DNA of 64,000 nt, taken from positions 34,943 through 98,942 of the IMG/VR virus record IMGVR_UViG_2870083564_000004. One strand, given 5' to 3'. The notes under the pieces are model-generated. The model was not told the origin of the DNA. It saw only the letters and a program-made list of their open reading frames with translations, and ran no database searches. The number at the start of each line of letters is the position of its first letter. Within the stretch, counting starts at the first letter, position 1. Source of the DNA: a virus. Lineage: Duplodnaviria > Heunggongvirae > Uroviricota > Caudoviricetes. Both the position numbers and the translations under genes were made by a program. This document shows positions 3,800-62,921 of the stretch, piece after piece.

Positions 3800-3960
3800 G
3801 GGCGGTGCGTCTTACCTTTATGGTCGAACAAGATCAACTTTAACAACGGGACACGTTGGCTTGGTGTCCGAGCGCTGCCGCGTTCAGAGGGAGAGCGAAA
3901 ATCGGCGAAGGGGCGAATTCGCGTCTGATGATGGGGTGCATGATGGGTCAAAAAACAAAA

Positions 3961-3995
3961 AGCCCCGCAGATCATTGATTTTGCGGGGCTTTTTC
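3961..3995. terminator. bidirectional intrinsic-terminator-like hairpin
   Basis: The sequence aaaaaacaaaa-AGCCCCGC-loop-GCGGGGCT-ttttt has a GC stem flanked by A/T runs on both strands. Confidence 0.5.
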
Positions 3996-4003
3996 GATAT
4001 TTC

Positions 4004-4045
4004 TGGCGGAGAGAGGGGGATTCGAACCCCCGAGGGCCATCTGAA
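4004..4045 (-). other. tRNA 3'-end fragment (tRNA-Ser-like T-arm, acceptor and CCA); candidate prophage att-site copy
   Basis: The minus strand reads ...GGGGGTTCGAATCCCCCTCTCTCCGCCA, a T-stem-loop plus 7-nt acceptor 3' strand, G discriminator and CCA. No complementary 5' acceptor (GGAGAGA) or D-arm lies upstream, so this is a fragment and not a gene. Confidence 0.5.
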
Positions 4046-4251
4046 AATTAAGGGTTCGCGGGCGGTGCGATCCCAATTCCTGTCATTGTTCGCCATCCCG
4101 ATCTCAGCCTTCGCCGCTCGAATACCAGCGTCTACTGCCACTTCACAGTAACGACACGGCGCACTTCACGCTCACTCCGAACATCGAGTTCTTGCCCATT
4201 GATTGTTGGCGCCACAAAAAACTGAAGCCCCGTCTTTACGGGGCTTCTAGA

Positions 4252-4695
4252 CTACCTGCCGCTTGCGCCAGGTTTAGGCGGAGTTCGTACAGTCTTCCCG
4301 ATGACAAACACTGAAACCAGGCTAACAAGTGTTGCGCCGCCAATTCCAACTGCCGCCCAATCATGGCCCATGACCGCAAGTAACGCGGCAATACCGAGCC
4401 CAATTACGCCGATAACGAATCCGGACAGAATGCCCGCCATGCGCTCAACAAATCGGAAAGTATTGACCCGGTGCGCCTCCGACCGGCGAAATTCGCCTTC
4501 GACGCGCGCCTGCTCAAATACCCATTCGACCTTATCAGGAGCAATTTCCTTCAGGCGCTCGATCTGCGCCATCGGAAGGAGGGGCGCGTCAGTTTCGTGA
4601 TGCGATACAGTGAGACTCCGGTCTTTATCCTTCACCTGTGCCGTTGTTTGTCGCCCCATTTTTTCCCGTGAGACAGTAGTAAGACTGCCGTTCAA
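4252..4695 (-). CDS. membrane protein (DUF2335-like)
   Basis: Conserved-looking N-terminal segment (LPMAQIERLKEIAPDKVEWVF) followed by two TM helices, with a hairpin/T-run terminator just downstream. Confidence 0.4.
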   Translation of the reverse strand: MNGSLTTVSREKMGRQTTAQVKDKDRSLTVSHHETDAPLLPMAQIERLKEIAPDKVEWVFEQARVEGEFRRSEAHRVNTFRFVERMAGILSGFVIGVIGLGIAALLAVMGHDWAAVGIGGATLVSLVSVFVIGKTVRTPPKPGASGR

Positions 4696-5139
4696 CGCGC
4701 GCCATTACGCGCCGCATATCTGCCCCGGCAGCCTCAAAGTCTCTCGCTTGGTCGCCTCTGCGGGGGATTTCGTATTGTGGAAAACTACCAAATGCGTTCA
4801 GCGACAAACCCATGCCAGCCAAGGCTTCGAGCAAGTGCTTCATTGCTTTCTCCAATCGGTCGACAGGAAGCCCCAAGCTAGGCGCACAAGCGCCTCTCAA
4901 ACATATGACAAAAAGCTAGGGGGTGCTTGCATTGTACCCTCGAAACTAAAACCGCGTACTTGACAAGGCAAAAAAACTCCAATCAAGTTCAATTATCGGC
5001 AGCAGACGCCTGAACTCAAGATAGGGGCGGCACGAATGTATAAAAACGGATGCGACAAATTGACGCACCGAGCGCCGTTCCGCGCCCGAAAAGAACCCGG
5101 AACCATTTTCCGTAAGCCTCACCTCGCCTTGAGGTCCGA

Positions 5140-34748: not shown

Positions 34749-35131
34749 CCGAAGTTCAATTTATCGAGCAGGACGGCCACCGGGCCTTTGCCGTGGTCCC
34801 CATCGAACTGTGGGACCGCGTGAAGGACCTAATCGAAGATCTCGAAGATGAAGCGCTCTACGCGCAGGCCAAGGCAAACGACGACGGCCGCCGCATCCCG
34901 GCCGCTGTGCTCGATGCTGAACTGGCGGGCGATCACCCTGTTCGAGCTTGGCGCAATCATCTGCGCATGACGCAAGATGCGCTCGCCGCAGCAGCCGGCA
35001 TCAGCAAACCGTATCTCAGCCAGATCGAAACCCGGCAGCGCGTCGGCACTACCGACGTGCTGTCTAAGATCGCCAGCGCACTTGCAGTGCCCGTCGACGA
35101 CTTGATCGAGCCGCCGCCCGCACAGTCGTAA
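34745..35131 (+). CDS. antitoxin, XRE-family HTH (HigA-like, toxin-first operon)
   Basis: ATGA overlap with the toxin. C-terminal HTH (MTQDALAAAAGISKPYLSQIE). Confidence 0.7.
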   Translation: MTEVQFIEQDGHRAFAVVPIELWDRVKDLIEDLEDEALYAQAKANDDGRRIPAAVLDAELAGDHPVRAWRNHLRMTQDALAAAAGISKPYLSQIETRQRVGTTDVLSKIASALAVPVDDLIEPPPAQS

Positions 35132-50126: not shown

Positions 50127-50369
50127 TCACGCCGTTGTCTCCTTCTGTTGGGTGAGTTCCGGCCAGATCAGGTGCCAATCCTTTGGCCGTAGATCGCGCC
50201 GGGTTACGTCACCACTCGTGAGCCGTTCAATCGCGACGCAATGACGAACAGGCACCCCGAGTCGCTTCCATTGGCTGACCGCAGCCTTCGTCACGCCGAG
50301 GCAGGTAGCTAATGCAGCGGCCGAGCCAGCAATGGCCGCAGCGCGGGCGATGGGTGAGGTTTTGTCCAT
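50127..50369 (-). CDS. Cro-like HTH regulator (YdaS/Cro family)
   Basis: 80 aa (LGVTKAAVSQWKRLG); divergent from the CI-like gene across an 81-bp AT-rich gap. Confidence 0.55.
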   Translation of the reverse strand: MDKTSPIARAAAIAGSAAALATCLGVTKAAVSQWKRLGVPVRHCVAIERLTSGDVTRRDLRPKDWHLIWPELTQQKETTA

Positions 50370-50450
50370 GGTGAAAGTATAGAAATTTTAAACACCAGAA
50401 GTCAAGCAATACAACACCCAACTAGTTAAGGTTTTCTTTACTCTCTAACC

Positions 50451-50840
50451 ATGAACCTTGCGCAGTGGCTAAAAATTTCCCGGGAAAAAGCGGGACTCAC
50501 CCTCGAAGAGATCGGCGACGTCGTTAGCCGATCAAAGGGGGCAATTTCTCAGTGGGAAAACGGGAAGACAGAGCCGAGCTATTGGCAGGTGTTGGCCATC
50601 TATGAGCGGACCAATCGTGCCGTCGATCTGCCGACTCTTGCTGACGCGCCGGTCGAAGTGGGATTGAGCATCAGCGATGCATGGCTCGCCAAGCTCAGCC
50701 CGAGCGCACGATCTCTGATCGACGCAGTCGCCGTGGCAGACCAAAGAAGCGTATCCCCGGCCGCCCTCGAAGCAATCGCAACTTTGCTTAAATCAATTCC
50801 CGGGGGAGATCCCGAGGACGGTGAACAGCTGCGTCTGTAG
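50451..50840 (+). CDS. CI-like repressor, XRE HTH, no S24 peptidase domain
   Basis: LTLEEIGDVVSRSKGAISQWENGK HTH; 129 aa. No Ser/Lys autocleavage motifs are present. Confidence 0.65.
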   Translation: MNLAQWLKISREKAGLTLEEIGDVVSRSKGAISQWENGKTEPSYWQVLAIYERTNRAVDLPTLADAPVEVGLSISDAWLAKLSPSARSLIDAVAVADQRSVSPAALEAIATLLKSIPGGDPEDGEQLRL

Positions 50841-51400: not shown

Positions 51401-52306
51401 ATGGACATGAGTGAATTTCGCATTACCTACGACGGGCCAGCCCTCGAGACGTCTGAAATGGACGTCCGCGAACTCGCGCCCGCTCTCATTGCAATTGGCG
51501 ACCTGCTGGAAGCGGCCACCAAGTCCCTTTGTGGCGACCAAGTCAAATCACAGGTAAATGTCCGTGGCAGTTTCAAGACTGGAAGTTTCGGTATCGACTT
51601 CAATCTCGTCACATCATTTGTCAGCAGGATGCGAGAGCTATTTGCCGGAAACGAGGCAACGGCGATCGCAAACGCACTAGCTATTCTCGGAGCAATCGGG
51701 TTTGCAGCGGAAAAGGGCGGTCGCGGCCTCTTTTCAGTTTTAAAGTGGCTACGCGGTCGCCCCATTGAGCGCGTCCAGGTTCAAGACAATAGTGCAATCC
51801 TGTATGTAGAAGGTGACATGCTTGAGATCGAACTCAGCGTGCTCACCCTACTACGCGACGTATCCGTACGCGAGGCAACGGCCCGCGTGCTGTCTCCGCT
51901 TTCCAGAGAAGGCATTATGATCTTCTCCGCCGGCTCGGACTCCGACATTGTGGAAACCGTTACAGACGATGAGATCGGTTGGTTTCATGCGCCCGAGCAG
52001 CAGGATATTCTGCTTGTTGATGAAACTCGCAAGATGGCCTTCTCAATCGTCTCTCTGGCATTCAAAGATGACAATAAGTGGCGCCTGTACGACGGTGCGG
52101 CAACGATTCATGCGTCAATCACCGATGCCGACTTTCTCAAACGTGTTGACAGCAATCAAATCAGCTTTGCAAAAGGAGACGTTCTGGTCTGTAGCGTCCG
52201 CGTCAAGCAATGGCAAACACCATCTGGTGCAAAAACAGATTACGAAGTGACTGAAGTTCTCGAACATCGCACAGCTGCCCGGCAGATCCAGCTTCCAGGC
52301 CTCTAA
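51401..52306 (+). CDS. hypothetical 301-aa protein (AT-rich island gene 1)
   Basis: Clean ORF with GGGGGA RBS; one internal hydrophobic segment; no motif I recognise. Followed by an intrinsic terminator. Confidence 0.5.
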   Translation: MDMSEFRITYDGPALETSEMDVRELAPALIAIGDLLEAATKSLCGDQVKSQVNVRGSFKTGSFGIDFNLVTSFVSRMRELFAGNEATAIANALAILGAIGFAAEKGGRGLFSVLKWLRGRPIERVQVQDNSAILYVEGDMLEIELSVLTLLRDVSVREATARVLSPLSREGIMIFSAGSDSDIVETVTDDEIGWFHAPEQQDILLVDETRKMAFSIVSLAFKDDNKWRLYDGAATIHASITDADFLKRVDSNQISFAKGDVLVCSVRVKQWQTPSGAKTDYEVTEVLEHRTAARQIQLPGL

Positions 52307-52308
52307 TT

Positions 52309-52336
52309 GCCCCGCCCCGCGCGGGGCTTTTCATTG
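52309..52336 (+). terminator. intrinsic terminator
   Basis: GCCCCGC-GCGGGGC followed by TTTTCATT. Confidence 0.5.
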
Positions 52337-52604
52337 CCGGCCCCGCTCGAACGTCTCCCTCCAGAACGTTGCACCCACTGACGTCAGCAGCGCACTCTCG
52401 TCGTCTCAGGCGGCGCCACGCCTCCGATAGCCAGTTGTCAAATCCAGCGCGGCCATCGTCCGGTCGGCGGACGCCCTTCCCTCAACATTCGACCACTCGA
52501 AGATCGTGATCACTCCGTGTGACGTCATGGTTGGCGCTCCCCCTGTTGATTTCAACTTACACAAAGCTGCGCAGAACATTTCATATTGATAAAATTGATA
52601 TGCC

Positions 52605-53234
52605 ATGCGTGATACGGTACTGCAATGTCAGCATGGGCAAACCGCCACGGAGCAGATATTGTTAAGAAACTTAAAATTTACATTACTCACAATTTCATCA
52701 ATTATATTAATAATCATACTGCTTGGAGTATACAAAACAGCAAGAATTTCCCAGGAGAGACGAACGGAACGCAGCTTGATCCAAGTTTCCCTGCTTTTGG
52801 AGGCATCGCTCAAATCGGATCGAACAAAGAAACCGGAGGACTACGCGAGATTTGGCGACTTGAGACCTATGAACCATGTCCAAGAAGAACATTCAGACGG
52901 ACCATTCTCGCCCTTCGAAAGCAGAGAATTAGCAGATATTGCAAATATCTACAAGGAAAGTGTGACGCGCATCGTCGAGCTCATAGACAAGAAAAGCACA
53001 CTCGAAAGCCAAATTCGCGACGCTCGCTGGTATAAATCGGATGACTGGTATCAAAAAATTGAAGATGCGCGCCATGAGCTTGCATCTTTATCAATCGATT
53101 TAATTAGATCATTGCGAGATGCCCGATCGGCAGGCCTCGATGCTAGCAAGCACCTAAATGAATTCTATTTCCCTGCTACCGAAATAGACCTTGGCATCAT
53201 TCGCTACAGTTCCCTGACCTATTCCACAGAGTAA
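52605..53234 (+). CDS. single-pass membrane protein with coiled coil (AT-rich island gene 2)
   Basis: N-terminal TM (FTLLTISSIILIIILLGVY), then a charged helical region. About 38% GC. Confidence 0.45.
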   Translation: MRDTVLQCQHGQTATEQILLRNLKFTLLTISSIILIIILLGVYKTARISQERRTERSLIQVSLLLEASLKSDRTKKPEDYARFGDLRPMNHVQEEHSDGPFSPFESRELADIANIYKESVTRIVELIDKKSTLESQIRDARWYKSDDWYQKIEDARHELASLSIDLIRSLRDARSAGLDASKHLNEFYFPATEIDLGIIRYSSLTYSTE

Positions 53235-53341: not shown

Positions 53342-53368
53342 CAGCCCGCTTCCCCGCGGGCTTTTTTG
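53342..53368 (+). terminator. intrinsic terminator
   Basis: CAGCCCGC-ttcc-GCGGGCT followed by TTTTTTG. Confidence 0.55.
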
Positions 53369-53465
53369 CGTCCGTTCGACGTGGCGGACATCCCTCCTCT
53401 GTCTATGTGTACGGCGCGTCCATCCCGAGGTTACGAATTTCTATACTGGGCAAGTATATCTTTGC

Positions 53466-53495
53466 TTGACTTTTGATGTTCAGCTTTTCTATACT
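53466..53495 (+). promoter_or_regulatory. near-consensus sigma-70 promoter TTGACT-N18-TATACT
   Basis: Lies in an AT-rich tract with no ORF downstream for about 650 bp. Confidence 0.5.
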
Positions 53496-53502
53496 TTATC
53501 TC

Positions 53503-54170
53503 ACCGCAGCACGGATCGCTGCGCCACCGCTCCGGCGGATCGATCTTTAACAACCTAAGGTAAGCCGGGACCGCAGTATTGGGAGCAACCGGCCGGGGCG
53601 ATCTAGCCTCGTGAATCAGGGCAGACGAACCGCGCTAGGCCGATGTTGGCTACCGGACAGAAATCTGAATGAACCTGATACAAGACAGCCACTAGAAAAG
53701 CGCCCGATGGCTTTGTAATCGGCGCAAACCTCGCGCGCCCCGGAGCCGGCACGGCCGGATGTAGCCGGGCGCGCGAGTGGAAGCAGATTCATGGAGCCGG
53801 AATGCGCAGGCTGATGCGCGACCAGCATAGTCGCTGGAATCCCAAAGCCGGAGATCAGCGCCGGCCCGGCTCCATGAATCTGTTTCGGAATTGCGCCCGG
53901 GTAGATGGACAGCCAACTCCATCGGTGAGCGCGACTCGCCAGCCCTGCGAGTGATAAACGAAGTGGGCCGGGTGCCGTGAGTTGGGCGATGGCAAGCTAC
54001 CCGACGGCCGCGCAGACGGTCACATGCCAAAGTGACGCCGGATGACGTAACCGGCACCTCCGACTGCGCTGATCGAATGGCATTGATCTCTCAGTGCCGT
54101 TCCTTGAGCGTTGTATTGATTTCGGATTACTAAATTATGAAGAGAAACAGCGCAATCGCGAATCTTCAAA
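53503..54170 (+). ncRNA. candidate structured non-coding RNA (unknown class)
   Basis: No + strand ORF of 60 aa or more over about 850 bp. Begins after a consensus promoter. GC-rich core with long-range inverted repeats (CAGATTCATGGAGCCGG ... CCGGCTCCATGAATCTG). The only - strand ORFs are Arg-rich artefacts. Confidence 0.3.
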
Positions 54171-54180
54171 AGGAGATCCA

Positions 54181-54408
54181 GTGGAATCGAATCGGAAGAT
54201 CCCAACCGTGTCGGTCGAGTGGTTGGAGAACGCGGCAGCTGATCTCGAGGTGAGCGCAAACGCGAGCCGCGAGACTTGGGCCCTGCTCGGCCTATCCCAT
54301 CGGTACAGCGAGAACATCGGCCGCGCTCACGCTATGCGACACGCGGCGCGCATGAAGCTCGACTACGACCGACGCATGTTCCTGCGTACGGTCGGGCTCA
54401 AGGTCTAG
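54181..54408 (+). CDS. small protein (75 aa)
   Basis: GTG start 5 nt after a perfect AAGGAG. The same frame is open from 54094 (GTG, no SD). Confidence 0.3.
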   Translation: MESNRKIPTVSVEWLENAAADLEVSANASRETWALLGLSHRYSENIGRAHAMRHAARMKLDYDRRMFLRTVGLKV

Positions 54409-54913: not shown

Positions 54914-55192
54914 TTACCTGCCGGCAGCCTTCTTTACCGCGGCCTTCTTTACTGCGGCCTTTTTTACTGCTCGTTTTCTCGTCGGAGCATGTCCGTTCAT
55001 ATAGTCAATGAACGCCTGAAGACTCATCTTTACGCCGTTTCTGCGCTTCGTCTTCCCTGCACACCAGATGACGGATGATTTGGTGACAATCAGATCTCCG
55101 AGAAAATTATCGGTGTTATTGCGAATCTCAAGCTCAATACCATTGTTCTTGAGTTCAATCTCAGCAGAGAGATCCTTCACTTTAACTTTCAT
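54914..55192 (-). CDS. small protein with Lys/Ala-rich histone-H1-like tail (possible nucleoid-associated/DNA-binding)
   Basis: C-terminus KRAVKKAAVKKAAVKKAAGR; AT-rich gene. Confidence 0.4.
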   Translation of the reverse strand: MKVKVKDLSAEIELKNNGIELEIRNNTDNFLGDLIVTKSSVIWCAGKTKRRNGVKMSLQAFIDYMNGHAPTRKRAVKKAAVKKAAVKKAAGR

Positions 55193-62627: not shown

Positions 62628-62921
62628 ATGATCGCGGCCTTCGCATCCCGGTATGTCACCGTGCTCAAGTTCTGTGACATGACCGGCTATACGGAAGACG
62701 CGGTGAAATCCAAACGCCGCGATGGTGTGTGGCTAGAAGGACAACTGTGGATTAAGGCGCCGGACGGGCGCATTTTGATTGATATCGAGGGGTATGAAAG
62801 ATGGGTAGAAACGGCACGGGTGTCCGCGCCATTAGTGGCAGTTCGATCGAAGTCACCTTCACCTATAAGGGCGTCCGTTGTCGCGAGCGCATCCGCCTCG
62901 AGCCCACGCCCGCTAACCTAA
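62628..62921 (+). CDS. xis: excisionase-like protein (DUF1233-type)
   Basis: YVTVLKFCDMTGYTEDAVKSKRRDGVWLEGQLWIKAPDGRILIDIEGYERW. The reading frame runs 121 nt into the integrase start. Confidence 0.45.
   Translation: MIAAFASRYVTVLKFCDMTGYTEDAVKSKRRDGVWLEGQLWIKAPDGRILIDIEGYERWVETARVSAPLVAVRSKSPSPIRASVVASASASSPRPLT

Follow-up and report, generated by a model that had tools for sequence, protein, structure and literature searches.

What is a long stretch without genes doing in the early region of a phage genome? The question is raised by the IMG/VR virus record IMGVR_UViG_2870083564_000004 (Caudoviricetes), of which we analysed 64,000 nucleotides (positions 34,943 to 98,942; hereafter the window, in whose coordinates positions are given). 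A first-pass annotation had singled out positions 53400-54180 as free of open reading frames (ORFs), preceded by a terminator, headed by a consensus sigma-70 promoter and containing long-range inverted repeats, and had proposed that they encode a structured non-coding RNA (ncRNA) of no known family. In our analysis, the balance tips slightly towards this stretch being the untranslated, structured leader, of about 680 nt (~53503-54180), with which the early-left (pL-type) operon of a lambda-like Burkholderia prophage begins. As for its function, we favour, with a little more than even confidence, a cis-acting antitermination leader that depends on host Nus factors, dispenses with an N protein and mimics the leader of the ribosomal RNA operons (rrn); we infer the binding of these factors, and the ensuing resistance to Rho, from the signals described below.

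The element is conserved among phages, and its conservation is not that of a gene. Sensitive blastn of the stretch against phage genomes found it in 40 phage records, 38 of them from Burkholderia and one each labelled 'Shewanella' and 'Hujiaoplasma', and pattern scans of viral contigs gave about 100 further loci. The closest match, phi644-2, is 93.7% identical over 53495-54180. Together these sequences form a family of RNAs, found in about 100 phages and prophages of Burkholderia, that has no entry in Rfam, and since a scan of metagenomes gave only 6 loci, the lineage appears narrow. Most phage records leave the homologous stretch unannotated. In phi644-2, at 94% identity, frames and ORF sets differ from those of the window in all frames, and indels of a single nucleotide separate close relatives across the stretch. 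These frame-breaking indels and non-conserved ORF sets rule out coding by a 50-amino-acid (aa) Arg-rich ORF of the + strand (53802-53954) or by ORFs of the - strand. The count of no + strand ORF of 60 aa or more in the first-pass annotation is valid for 53400-54093, where the longest have 54 and 50 aa (a 104-aa GTG ORF at 54094 is the upstream extension of the gene at 54181), and the - strand ORFs that it had set aside as artefacts, of 121 and 70 aa, are not conserved. Its remark that the region is GC-rich unlike the flanks is right for one side only: the GC content of the element (0.60-0.62) exceeds that of the upstream moron genes (0.40-0.47) and is like that of the downstream genes (0.60-0.65).

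The two records with other host names are OK094664 ('Shewanella phage vB_Sb_QDWS', our locus L006) and OP650936 ('Hujiaoplasma phage zrk29-1'). Each has a length of 47,902 bp and carries a Burkholderia-type leader, at 83% identity, in the context of a lambda-like Burkholderia phage. Their stated hosts look doubtful, perhaps as a result of contamination or of one phage having been deposited twice.

Known RNA families do not account for the element. No model of Rfam 15 reached its gathering threshold in the 64-kb window, among them those of GOLLD, ROOL, HEARO, OLE, raiA, transfer-messenger RNA (tmRNA), RNase P, 6S, group I and group II introns, riboswitches and the small RNAs of Burkholderia; at E <= 10 there were only chance-level matches to mir-1289 (22.9 bits vs 66) and rydB (17.7 vs 50). 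ARAGORN called no tRNA or tmRNA in the window and 12 loci, and the region contains no tandem or long direct repeats and no iterons. A retron msr-msd or the repeat RNA of a type III toxin-antitoxin system, which the first-pass annotation had also been unable to recognise, can be rejected on the lack of tandem repeats and of a reverse transcriptase domain in the neighbouring ORFs scanned. The template RNA of a diversity-generating retroelement was considered because the next gene in phage Magia is annotated as a possible target of such an element, and was rejected because there is neither a repeat pair nor a reverse transcriptase. The literature searched (boxA with Burkholderia phage, antiterminator RNA, and the genome paper of phi644-2) holds no earlier description of this RNA.

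The case for structure comes from compensatory substitutions. In an alignment of 39 core-containing sequences (A2), the 63 pairs are 98.6% paired and 17 of them show compensatory changes, against 3.5 +/- 1.3 after column shuffles (0 of 500 reached the observed number) and 0-2 when the partner was slid by 1-3 columns. An alignment of 37 less redundant sequences, including divergent metagenomic ones (A5), has 61 pairs that are 95.7% paired, 29 of them with compensatory changes, against 10.3 +/- 2.0 after shuffling and 6-11 after sliding. Many of the conserved pairs are G-U, which on the opposite strand would give A-C mismatches, and the + strand is therefore the functional one. Compared with shuffled sequences, 53500-54130 (631 nt) folds with z = -7.5 on the + strand and z = -3.3 on the - strand. 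The 281-nt core alone folds no better than shuffles (z = -1.3), so that the support for the structure lies in covariation and not in folding energy. A scan of column pairs for pseudoknots and long-range pairings gave no signal beyond subtype-linked columns. With covariation above the controls and no conserved frame, the + strand of the element presents itself as a modular structured RNA. The proposal of a structured ncRNA of no known family has thus withstood both the search of Rfam and the analysis of homologues, in which conservation extends from the -10 box on; its implied independence has not, since the RNA is promoter-driven but appears to be the leader of an operon.

The alignments divide this RNA into a common 5' leader, a core (module A, 53564-53779), two optional modules (B1 and B2) and a terminal hairpin (Table 1). 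Helices 1-8, in the 5' domain of the core, covary, e.g. P4 with CG<->GC in 12 sequences and P5a with AU<->GC in 16. The unpaired parts of the core are conserved as well: P3 has a GA/AGCAA internal loop, P4 a GATC loop, and P7, in the 3' domain, a GGAGCC/RNGUAGCC internal loop, which we take to resemble the bulged-G motif. Together with CAAGACAGCC, these features are candidate interaction surfaces. Leaders of other types keep the common start (the hairpins H1 and H2 and boxA) and exchange what follows: those of type II (e.g. vB_PR2b) retain only P3-P4 of the core, and those of type III have a different 5' domain followed by the same P6-P7. A covariance model of P6-P7 (R1) recognises the type III leaders with 51-74 bits and has two matches in a locus (L192) to which we return below. 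A further locus (L255, 2444-2536, - strand) has a distal P7 hairpin that is the exact reverse complement of the version of all other members, so that the stem is kept and the strands of the internal loop are swapped.

Module B1 is 99.8% paired across 14 loci and varies little, so covariation is modest there; its second hairpin covaries (CCAGC/GCTGG <-> CTGGC/GCCAG). The stem that closes it is the inverted repeat that had first drawn attention to the region. Its arms (53780-53800 and 53866-53886) are 21 nt long, 95% complementary and separated by 65 nt, and the 17-nt perfect complementarity reported earlier lies inside them; the spacing given as about 80 nt is fair, the distance from start to start being 86 nt. 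This repeat belongs to an optional module and not to the conserved core. The further repeats mentioned with it are also present: GGAGCCGG occurs at 53742 and 53793 on the + strand, with its complement at 53866, and has 8 copies in the window where 3.75 are expected. We rejected the notion that B1 is a dispersed repeat akin to a miniature inverted-repeat transposable element, given that each phage has one copy, at this position only. The B1 of one locus (L233, 3850-4180, - strand) has an insertion of ~150 nt with a T-loop-like GGTTCGAGTCC resembling the T-arm of tRNA, and ARAGORN calls no tRNA in this insert. Module B2 has compensatory changes in 10 of 50 predicted pairs among 9 sequences, e.g. 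GUCAC/GUGAC <-> GCCGG/CCGGC. The terminal hairpin C' is the structural counterpart of a hairpin ('module C') that ends the leader in other phages, and part of it was scored as a weak terminator-like site that has no proper U-run.

Where does transcription of this RNA begin, and when? The promoter proposed in the first-pass annotation is indeed the top sigma-70 match in the 3 kb scanned. Of 99 distinct leaders, 78 have a -10-like hexamer whose distance from the second hairpin is fixed at 36-40 nt, which places the start at ~53503, and the homology with other phages begins at 53495-53501, i.e. at the end of the -10 box. Between this promoter and the divergent promoter of the cro-like gene, 30 of 36 bases are the same, including the -35 box, the -10 box and most of the spacer (GCTTGACTTyTGrTGTTyA...TTTCTATACTTT), and the cro-like ORF has matches to the P22_Cro and YdaS families of Pfam. 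Paired early promoters under the control of one repressor look like this predicted pL/pR pair, and the early-left promoter is probably repressed in a stable lysogen. Because of the sequence shared with the cro promoter, the RNA is expected after induction or infection and not in the resting lysogen; RNA-seq or Northern blotting of the lysogen, as proposed earlier, could be falsely negative.

The surrounding map is that of a lambda-like phage. The - strand carries an O-like replication gene, methyltransferases, a CII-like gene and the cro-like gene (50130-50369), and the + strand carries the repressor (50451-50840), two AT-rich accessory genes, a terminator, the element, small ORFs and, at 62801, the integrase. 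On this map the element would occupy the position where lambda has pL-nutL-N. The terminator noted upstream is a hairpin followed by a T-run, and is predicted to end the moron genes of the repressor side (51401-52306 and 52605-53234) and to insulate them from the early-left promoter. The order is the same in every annotated phage, with the cro-like gene on one strand, and the repressor, 0-3 accessory genes, the element, small ORFs, a nuclease and RecT on the other. In all of them the element separates the repressor side from the early-left genes, whose strand it shares, and the first downstream gene varies among phages bearing the same RNA. Neither in the window nor in the short forms did we find a convincing terminator between the RNA and the first gene, which is why we describe the element as a predicted leader and not as a free-standing gene.

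The strongest functional clue, overlooked in the first-pass annotation, is the boxA with its hairpins at the 5' end. The boxA consensus, GCUCUUUAACAA, has a match in GATCTTTAACAA, which lies on the transcribed strand, not far from the start of the transcript, and is the sole motif of its kind in the window; other members of the family have CGCTCTCTAACAA, TGCTCTTTAACAA and similar versions. The hairpin H2 has the position of boxB in rrn leaders. Moreover, the 17-mer GGCGGATCGATCTTTAA (53534-53550), which comprises the 3' arm of H2 and boxA, is the same in 17 of 17 nt as the boxA region of an rrn leader of Paraburkholderia sp. HD33-4 (locus L041), a genome that is not that of the window's own host. 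There it precedes the 16S rRNA gene by 197 nt, in the same orientation, and the 16S-23S spacer has a second copy of TCTTTAACAA. A scan of genome contigs with the 17-nt pattern was loose and gave mostly chance matches; among the matches listed are at least one Burkholderia prophage and at least three Paraburkholderia rrn leaders. Similarity of the element to rRNA beyond boxA was not found.

The association of boxA with the structured core also holds for loci collected without boxA as the bait. The first viral scan was baited with boxA itself, and we hence repeated the search with a core anchor, CCTGAYRCAAGACAGCC. This search gave 82 cores whose upstream sequence was long enough to be judged, and in 76 of them a boxA-like motif precedes the core by 100-400 nt on its strand; in other parts of these loci such motifs occur at a background rate of 0.002 per 300 nt. 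In four of the six remaining cores the boxA is split by the insertion of a hairpin. These four loci (L229, L249, L256 and L266) read GCTCNTTAGAC, then an inserted hairpin of ~35 nt and then ...CAGACAATCGAAGG, at ~120-200 nt upstream of the core anchor, the insertion interrupting the usual TTAACAA. Two divergent metagenomic members have extra structured sequence between boxA and the core, and boxA still stands nearest to the 5' end.

How could these signals work together? An untranslated transcript of 680 nt is an ideal substrate for Rho, and the simplest reading is therefore that the phage borrows the rrn signal of its host. On rRNA operons, and likewise on CRISPR arrays, which are long and untranslated, complexes of NusB/NusE, NusG, NusA and SuhB bound to boxA block Rho (PMC7665894). 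Lambdoid phages that lack N have recourse to a leader RNA, put, located directly after pL (PMC9378689). In the mechanism that we propose, loss of the repressor would let RNA polymerase start at the early-left promoter and transcribe at once the two small hairpins and the boxA that copies the host rRNA-leader signal. Host NusB/NusE (S10), NusG, NusA and SuhB would assemble on boxA, still tethered to the polymerase, as they do on rrn and CRISPR-array leaders, and the elongation complex would thereby become resistant to Rho. The polymerase would finish the leader and proceed into the early genes towards the integrase without a protein of the lambda N type. The modules (P3-P5, P6-P7, B1, B2 and C') would most likely act in cis in one or more of three ways, by helping to hold the modified complex together (as N or put do), by setting how much transcription or translation reaches the first genes, or by offering long helices to RNase III. 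No N-like antiterminator was found among the small ORFs with Pfam or PHROGs; this lack of likeness, and the variation of the first gene next to the same RNA, are consistent with the absence of an N-type protein.

A number of observations weigh against this mechanism. First, RNAalifold pairs boxA (53542-53548) with the invariant CAAGACAGC (53681-53689), to which it is partly complementary (GCUCUYU/GAUCUUU). Both sides are invariant, and covariation speaks neither for nor against the pairing, which, if real, could hide boxA once the core has been transcribed. Second, the - strand downstream of the cro promoter has no boxA in the window, where we also found no second copy of the element, of any module or of boxA that might be a counterpart of putR or nutR. 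A boxA on the left operon only fits protection of this long untranslated RNA at least as well as, or better than, a general system of early antitermination. Third, the scan gave few intrinsic terminator-like sites downstream (5 where 10.4 are expected), and we recognised no defined barrier that would have to be overcome. Fourth, conserved, swappable structure of 230-630 nt is more than a boxA would need by itself, and modules that are swappable and sometimes duplicated look as much like independent RNAs or platforms for proteins as like parts of an antiterminator. Large swappable domains could be cis modules in the manner of put or N, or a trans-acting RNA.

The last point leads to an alternative that we regard as possible, if less than probable, namely that the structured part acts in trans, as a decoy or sponge for a host protein or a defence system or as a scaffold, produced at the outset of the early programme and perhaps released by RNase III, and that boxA only protects it from Rho, a protection that any long untranslated RNA would require, as do rRNA and CRISPR arrays. 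The restriction of boxA to the left operon speaks for such an RNA, and so do its self-contained and recombining modules, with P6-P7 joined to another 5' domain in type III and present twice in L192, and with B1 and B2 optional. The conserved junctions and loops (CAAGACAGCC, the GATC hairpin loop and the GUAGCC internal loop) suggest binding surfaces, the long perfect helices of the B1 and module C stems are plausible sites of RNase III, and the slot beside the immunity region is a known hotspot of accessory functions in Burkholderia phages (PMC2920897). Finally, a homing endonuclease has targeted P6-P7, and the invaded allele has kept the fold, which points to selection on the fold. Against a trans-acting RNA, no terminator or conserved 3' end separates it from the mRNA, it has no known partner or target, neither a pseudoknot nor external complementarity was found, and all the observations in its favour fit a cis-acting leader too.

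The locus L192 (IMGVR_UViG_2545824755_000003, 3972-4620, - strand) deserves a description of its own. An ORF for an HNH homing endonuclease (Pfam HNH_3, E = 1e-7) interrupts the RNA gene, with one copy of P6-P7 on either side of it. The copy upstream has kept its fold through many compensatory double changes; the one downstream is near the consensus but without the beginning of P6. A group I intron was not detected in this RNA gene, and Rfam has 0 matches in positions 3800-4900 of the locus. From its arrangement, this looks like an invasion by the endonuclease accompanied by a structure-preserving and probably cleavage-resistant allele, and the retention of the fold after the invasion argues that it is under selection.

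Two views of the novelty of the element follow different readings of these modules. We lean mildly to a boxA-dependent antitermination leader of a known type, which here would bear a large new modular RNA. Only tentatively do we entertain the bolder view of a new class of large modular phage RNAs (280 to >700 nt), transcribed by an rRNA-style boxA/Nus complex, in which the RNA would do the job of the N protein or act in trans as an early host-takeover or anti-defence RNA, with domains that are exchangeable cassettes and the target of a homing endonuclease, the fold being restored by compensatory mutations.

A riboswitch-like or protein-sensing cis-regulator is improbable; in it, the core would recognise a metabolite or a protein of host or phage and would switch the terminal hairpin or the ribosome-binding site (RBS) of the first gene, adjusting early-left expression to the condition of the cell. 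It would account for the position in the 5' untranslated region, for a conserved multi-helix core with invariant junction nucleotides and for a conserved terminal hairpin shortly before the RBS. However, the first gene and the context of its RBS vary among phages with the same core, no alternative pairing of terminator and antiterminator and no U-run are evident, no riboswitch of Rfam matches, and relatives lack or exchange whole domains, as is unusual for an aptamer. Decayed genes or small ORFs, for which the 'hypothetical protein' annotations over the homologous stretch in Bups phi1, Magia and phiBtTUL1a might speak, or a site acting at the DNA level (origin, packaging or attachment), are very unlikely indeed, given frames that are not conserved at 94% identity, tolerated single-base indels, compensatory changes in helices with strand-specific G-U pairs, homology that begins at the -10 box and the lack of iterons and tandem repeats.

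Table 1. Positions of the leader, its parts and its flanking signals in the window.
Feature	Position	Strand	Remarks
Early-right (pR-type) promoter	50372-50407	-	Same -35, -10 and most of spacer as early-left promoter; directly before cro-like ORF 50130-50369
Intrinsic terminator	53343-53362	+	7-bp GC stem, then TTTTTT; 3' of upstream ORF 52605-53234
Early-left (pL-type) promoter, TTGACT-N18-TATACT	53466-53495	+	10/12 sigma-70 match; predicted start ~53502-53503
Hairpin H1 (CGCAGC...GCTGCG)	53505-53523	+	First structure of transcript; compensatory changes in 4/6 pairs
Hairpin H2 (CCGCT..GGCGG)	53527-53538	+	Directly 5' of boxA; 99% paired; variation on one side only
boxA GATCTTTAACAA	53542-53553	+	Near-consensus; ~40 nt from predicted start
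Core 5' domain	53564-53682	+	P3 53564-53593; P4 53594-53611; P5 and variable insert 53612-53682
Junction CCTGATACAAGACAGCC	53674-53690	+	Near-invariant; anchor for independent searches
Core 3' domain	53700-53779	+	P6 53700-53725; P7 53729-53779; compensatory changes in 16/29 pairs (helices 9-11)
Optional module B1	53783-53883	+	Four-way junction; 16-bp closing stem = inverted repeat; hairpins 53803-53820, 53822-53837, 53847-53865
Optional module B2	53884-~54060	+	Multi-hairpin; in 9 examined loci
Terminal hairpin C'	54066-54110	+	Outer stem, small internal loop, inner stem; shortly before RBS
First operon gene	54181-54408	+	75 aa; GTG start; AGGAG RBS 54171-54175; phi644-2 gp45 homologue; phrog_16318, E = 8e-53

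Some features of the neighbourhood are of interest in themselves. On the cro side, 6 nt separate the end of the -10 box (TATACT, in the region 50369-50407, - strand) from the ATG of the cro-like ORF, whose mRNA is therefore probably leaderless. The two accessory genes within 51401-53234 (+ strand), of 301 aa (phrog_3243, function unknown) and 209 aa, have a GC content of 0.40-0.47 vs ~0.60 around them; a terminator of their own follows them, and they are flanked by the repressor on one side and the early-left promoter on the other. In lambda, rexAB occupies this slot; by position, the two genes are candidates for exclusion or defence genes expressed in the lysogen. Further downstream, a 92-aa ORF (54914-55192) lies on the - strand, opposite to that of the early-left operon; it ends in a AVKKAAVKKAAVKKAA repeat, a Lys/Ala-rich tail, and has no match in Pfam.

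If the proposed mechanism is right, temperate phages of the B. pseudomallei, cepacia and gladioli groups would run their early-left programme without N, by copying the antitermination signal of the host rRNA and joining it to a large structured RNA. This would be a third solution beside N/nut of lambda and put of HK022, and would extend the protection of long untranslated RNAs by boxA from rRNA and CRISPR arrays to a regulatory RNA of phages. The modules supported by covariation (P3-P5, P6-P7, B1 and B2) lend themselves to structural and genetic work, L192 would provide a natural case of an RNA gene invaded by a homing endonuclease, and several GenBank records that call hypothetical proteins across the stretch could be corrected.

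The element has partial likenesses to several known systems. Like GOLLD and ROOL, it is a large, multi-domain, covarying RNA of as yet unknown function found on phages or prophages; unlike them, it has no Rfam match and no neighbouring tRNA, and is the promoter-proximal leader of an operon, with a boxA. With nutL-N of lambda it shares the place on the map, downstream of a repressor-controlled leftward early promoter, and the presence of a boxA. The N leader of lambda, which is processed by RNase III, is also long and structured. Unlike in the nut sites of lambda, a hairpin precedes boxA, which is the order of rrn, whereas in nut boxA precedes boxB; moreover, there is no N-like gene, the first gene is variable and the right operon has no second nut-like site. 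In lambda and HK022, nutL and nutR, and putL and putR, respectively, equip both early operons.

The put RNAs of HK022 and HK639, antiterminator RNAs that act independently of proteins (PMC9378689), resemble the element in that no N protein is evident, that a structured RNA lies just downstream of pL and that action in cis, on the polymerase transcribing it, is proposed. Put is ~70 nt long, has two stem-loops, acts without a boxA and without Nus factors, and is found in the two early operons alike (PMC9378689), in contrast with an element of 280-680 nt with many helices and a boxA in one operon only, and we detected no likeness between them in sequence or structure. The boxA of CRISPR arrays, like the one described here, stands at the start of an unusually long untranslated RNA, and its expected role is to prevent premature termination by Rho (PMC7665894); the RNA to be protected here is not an array of repeats but a structure of several covarying domains with which a phage operon begins. 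The rrn leader (boxB-boxA-boxC, with the rrnTAC complex of NusA/B/E/G, SuhB and S4) differs in that the element heads a phage early operon followed by protein-coding genes, has no rRNA likeness beyond boxA, and has a boxC-like motif that is weak at best and present in some members only. The two are nevertheless built alike at their start: in both, a long and structured transcript that is not translated has, near its 5' end, a hairpin and directly after it a near-consensus boxA, and the 17 nt around this boxA are the same as those of a host-type rrn leader.

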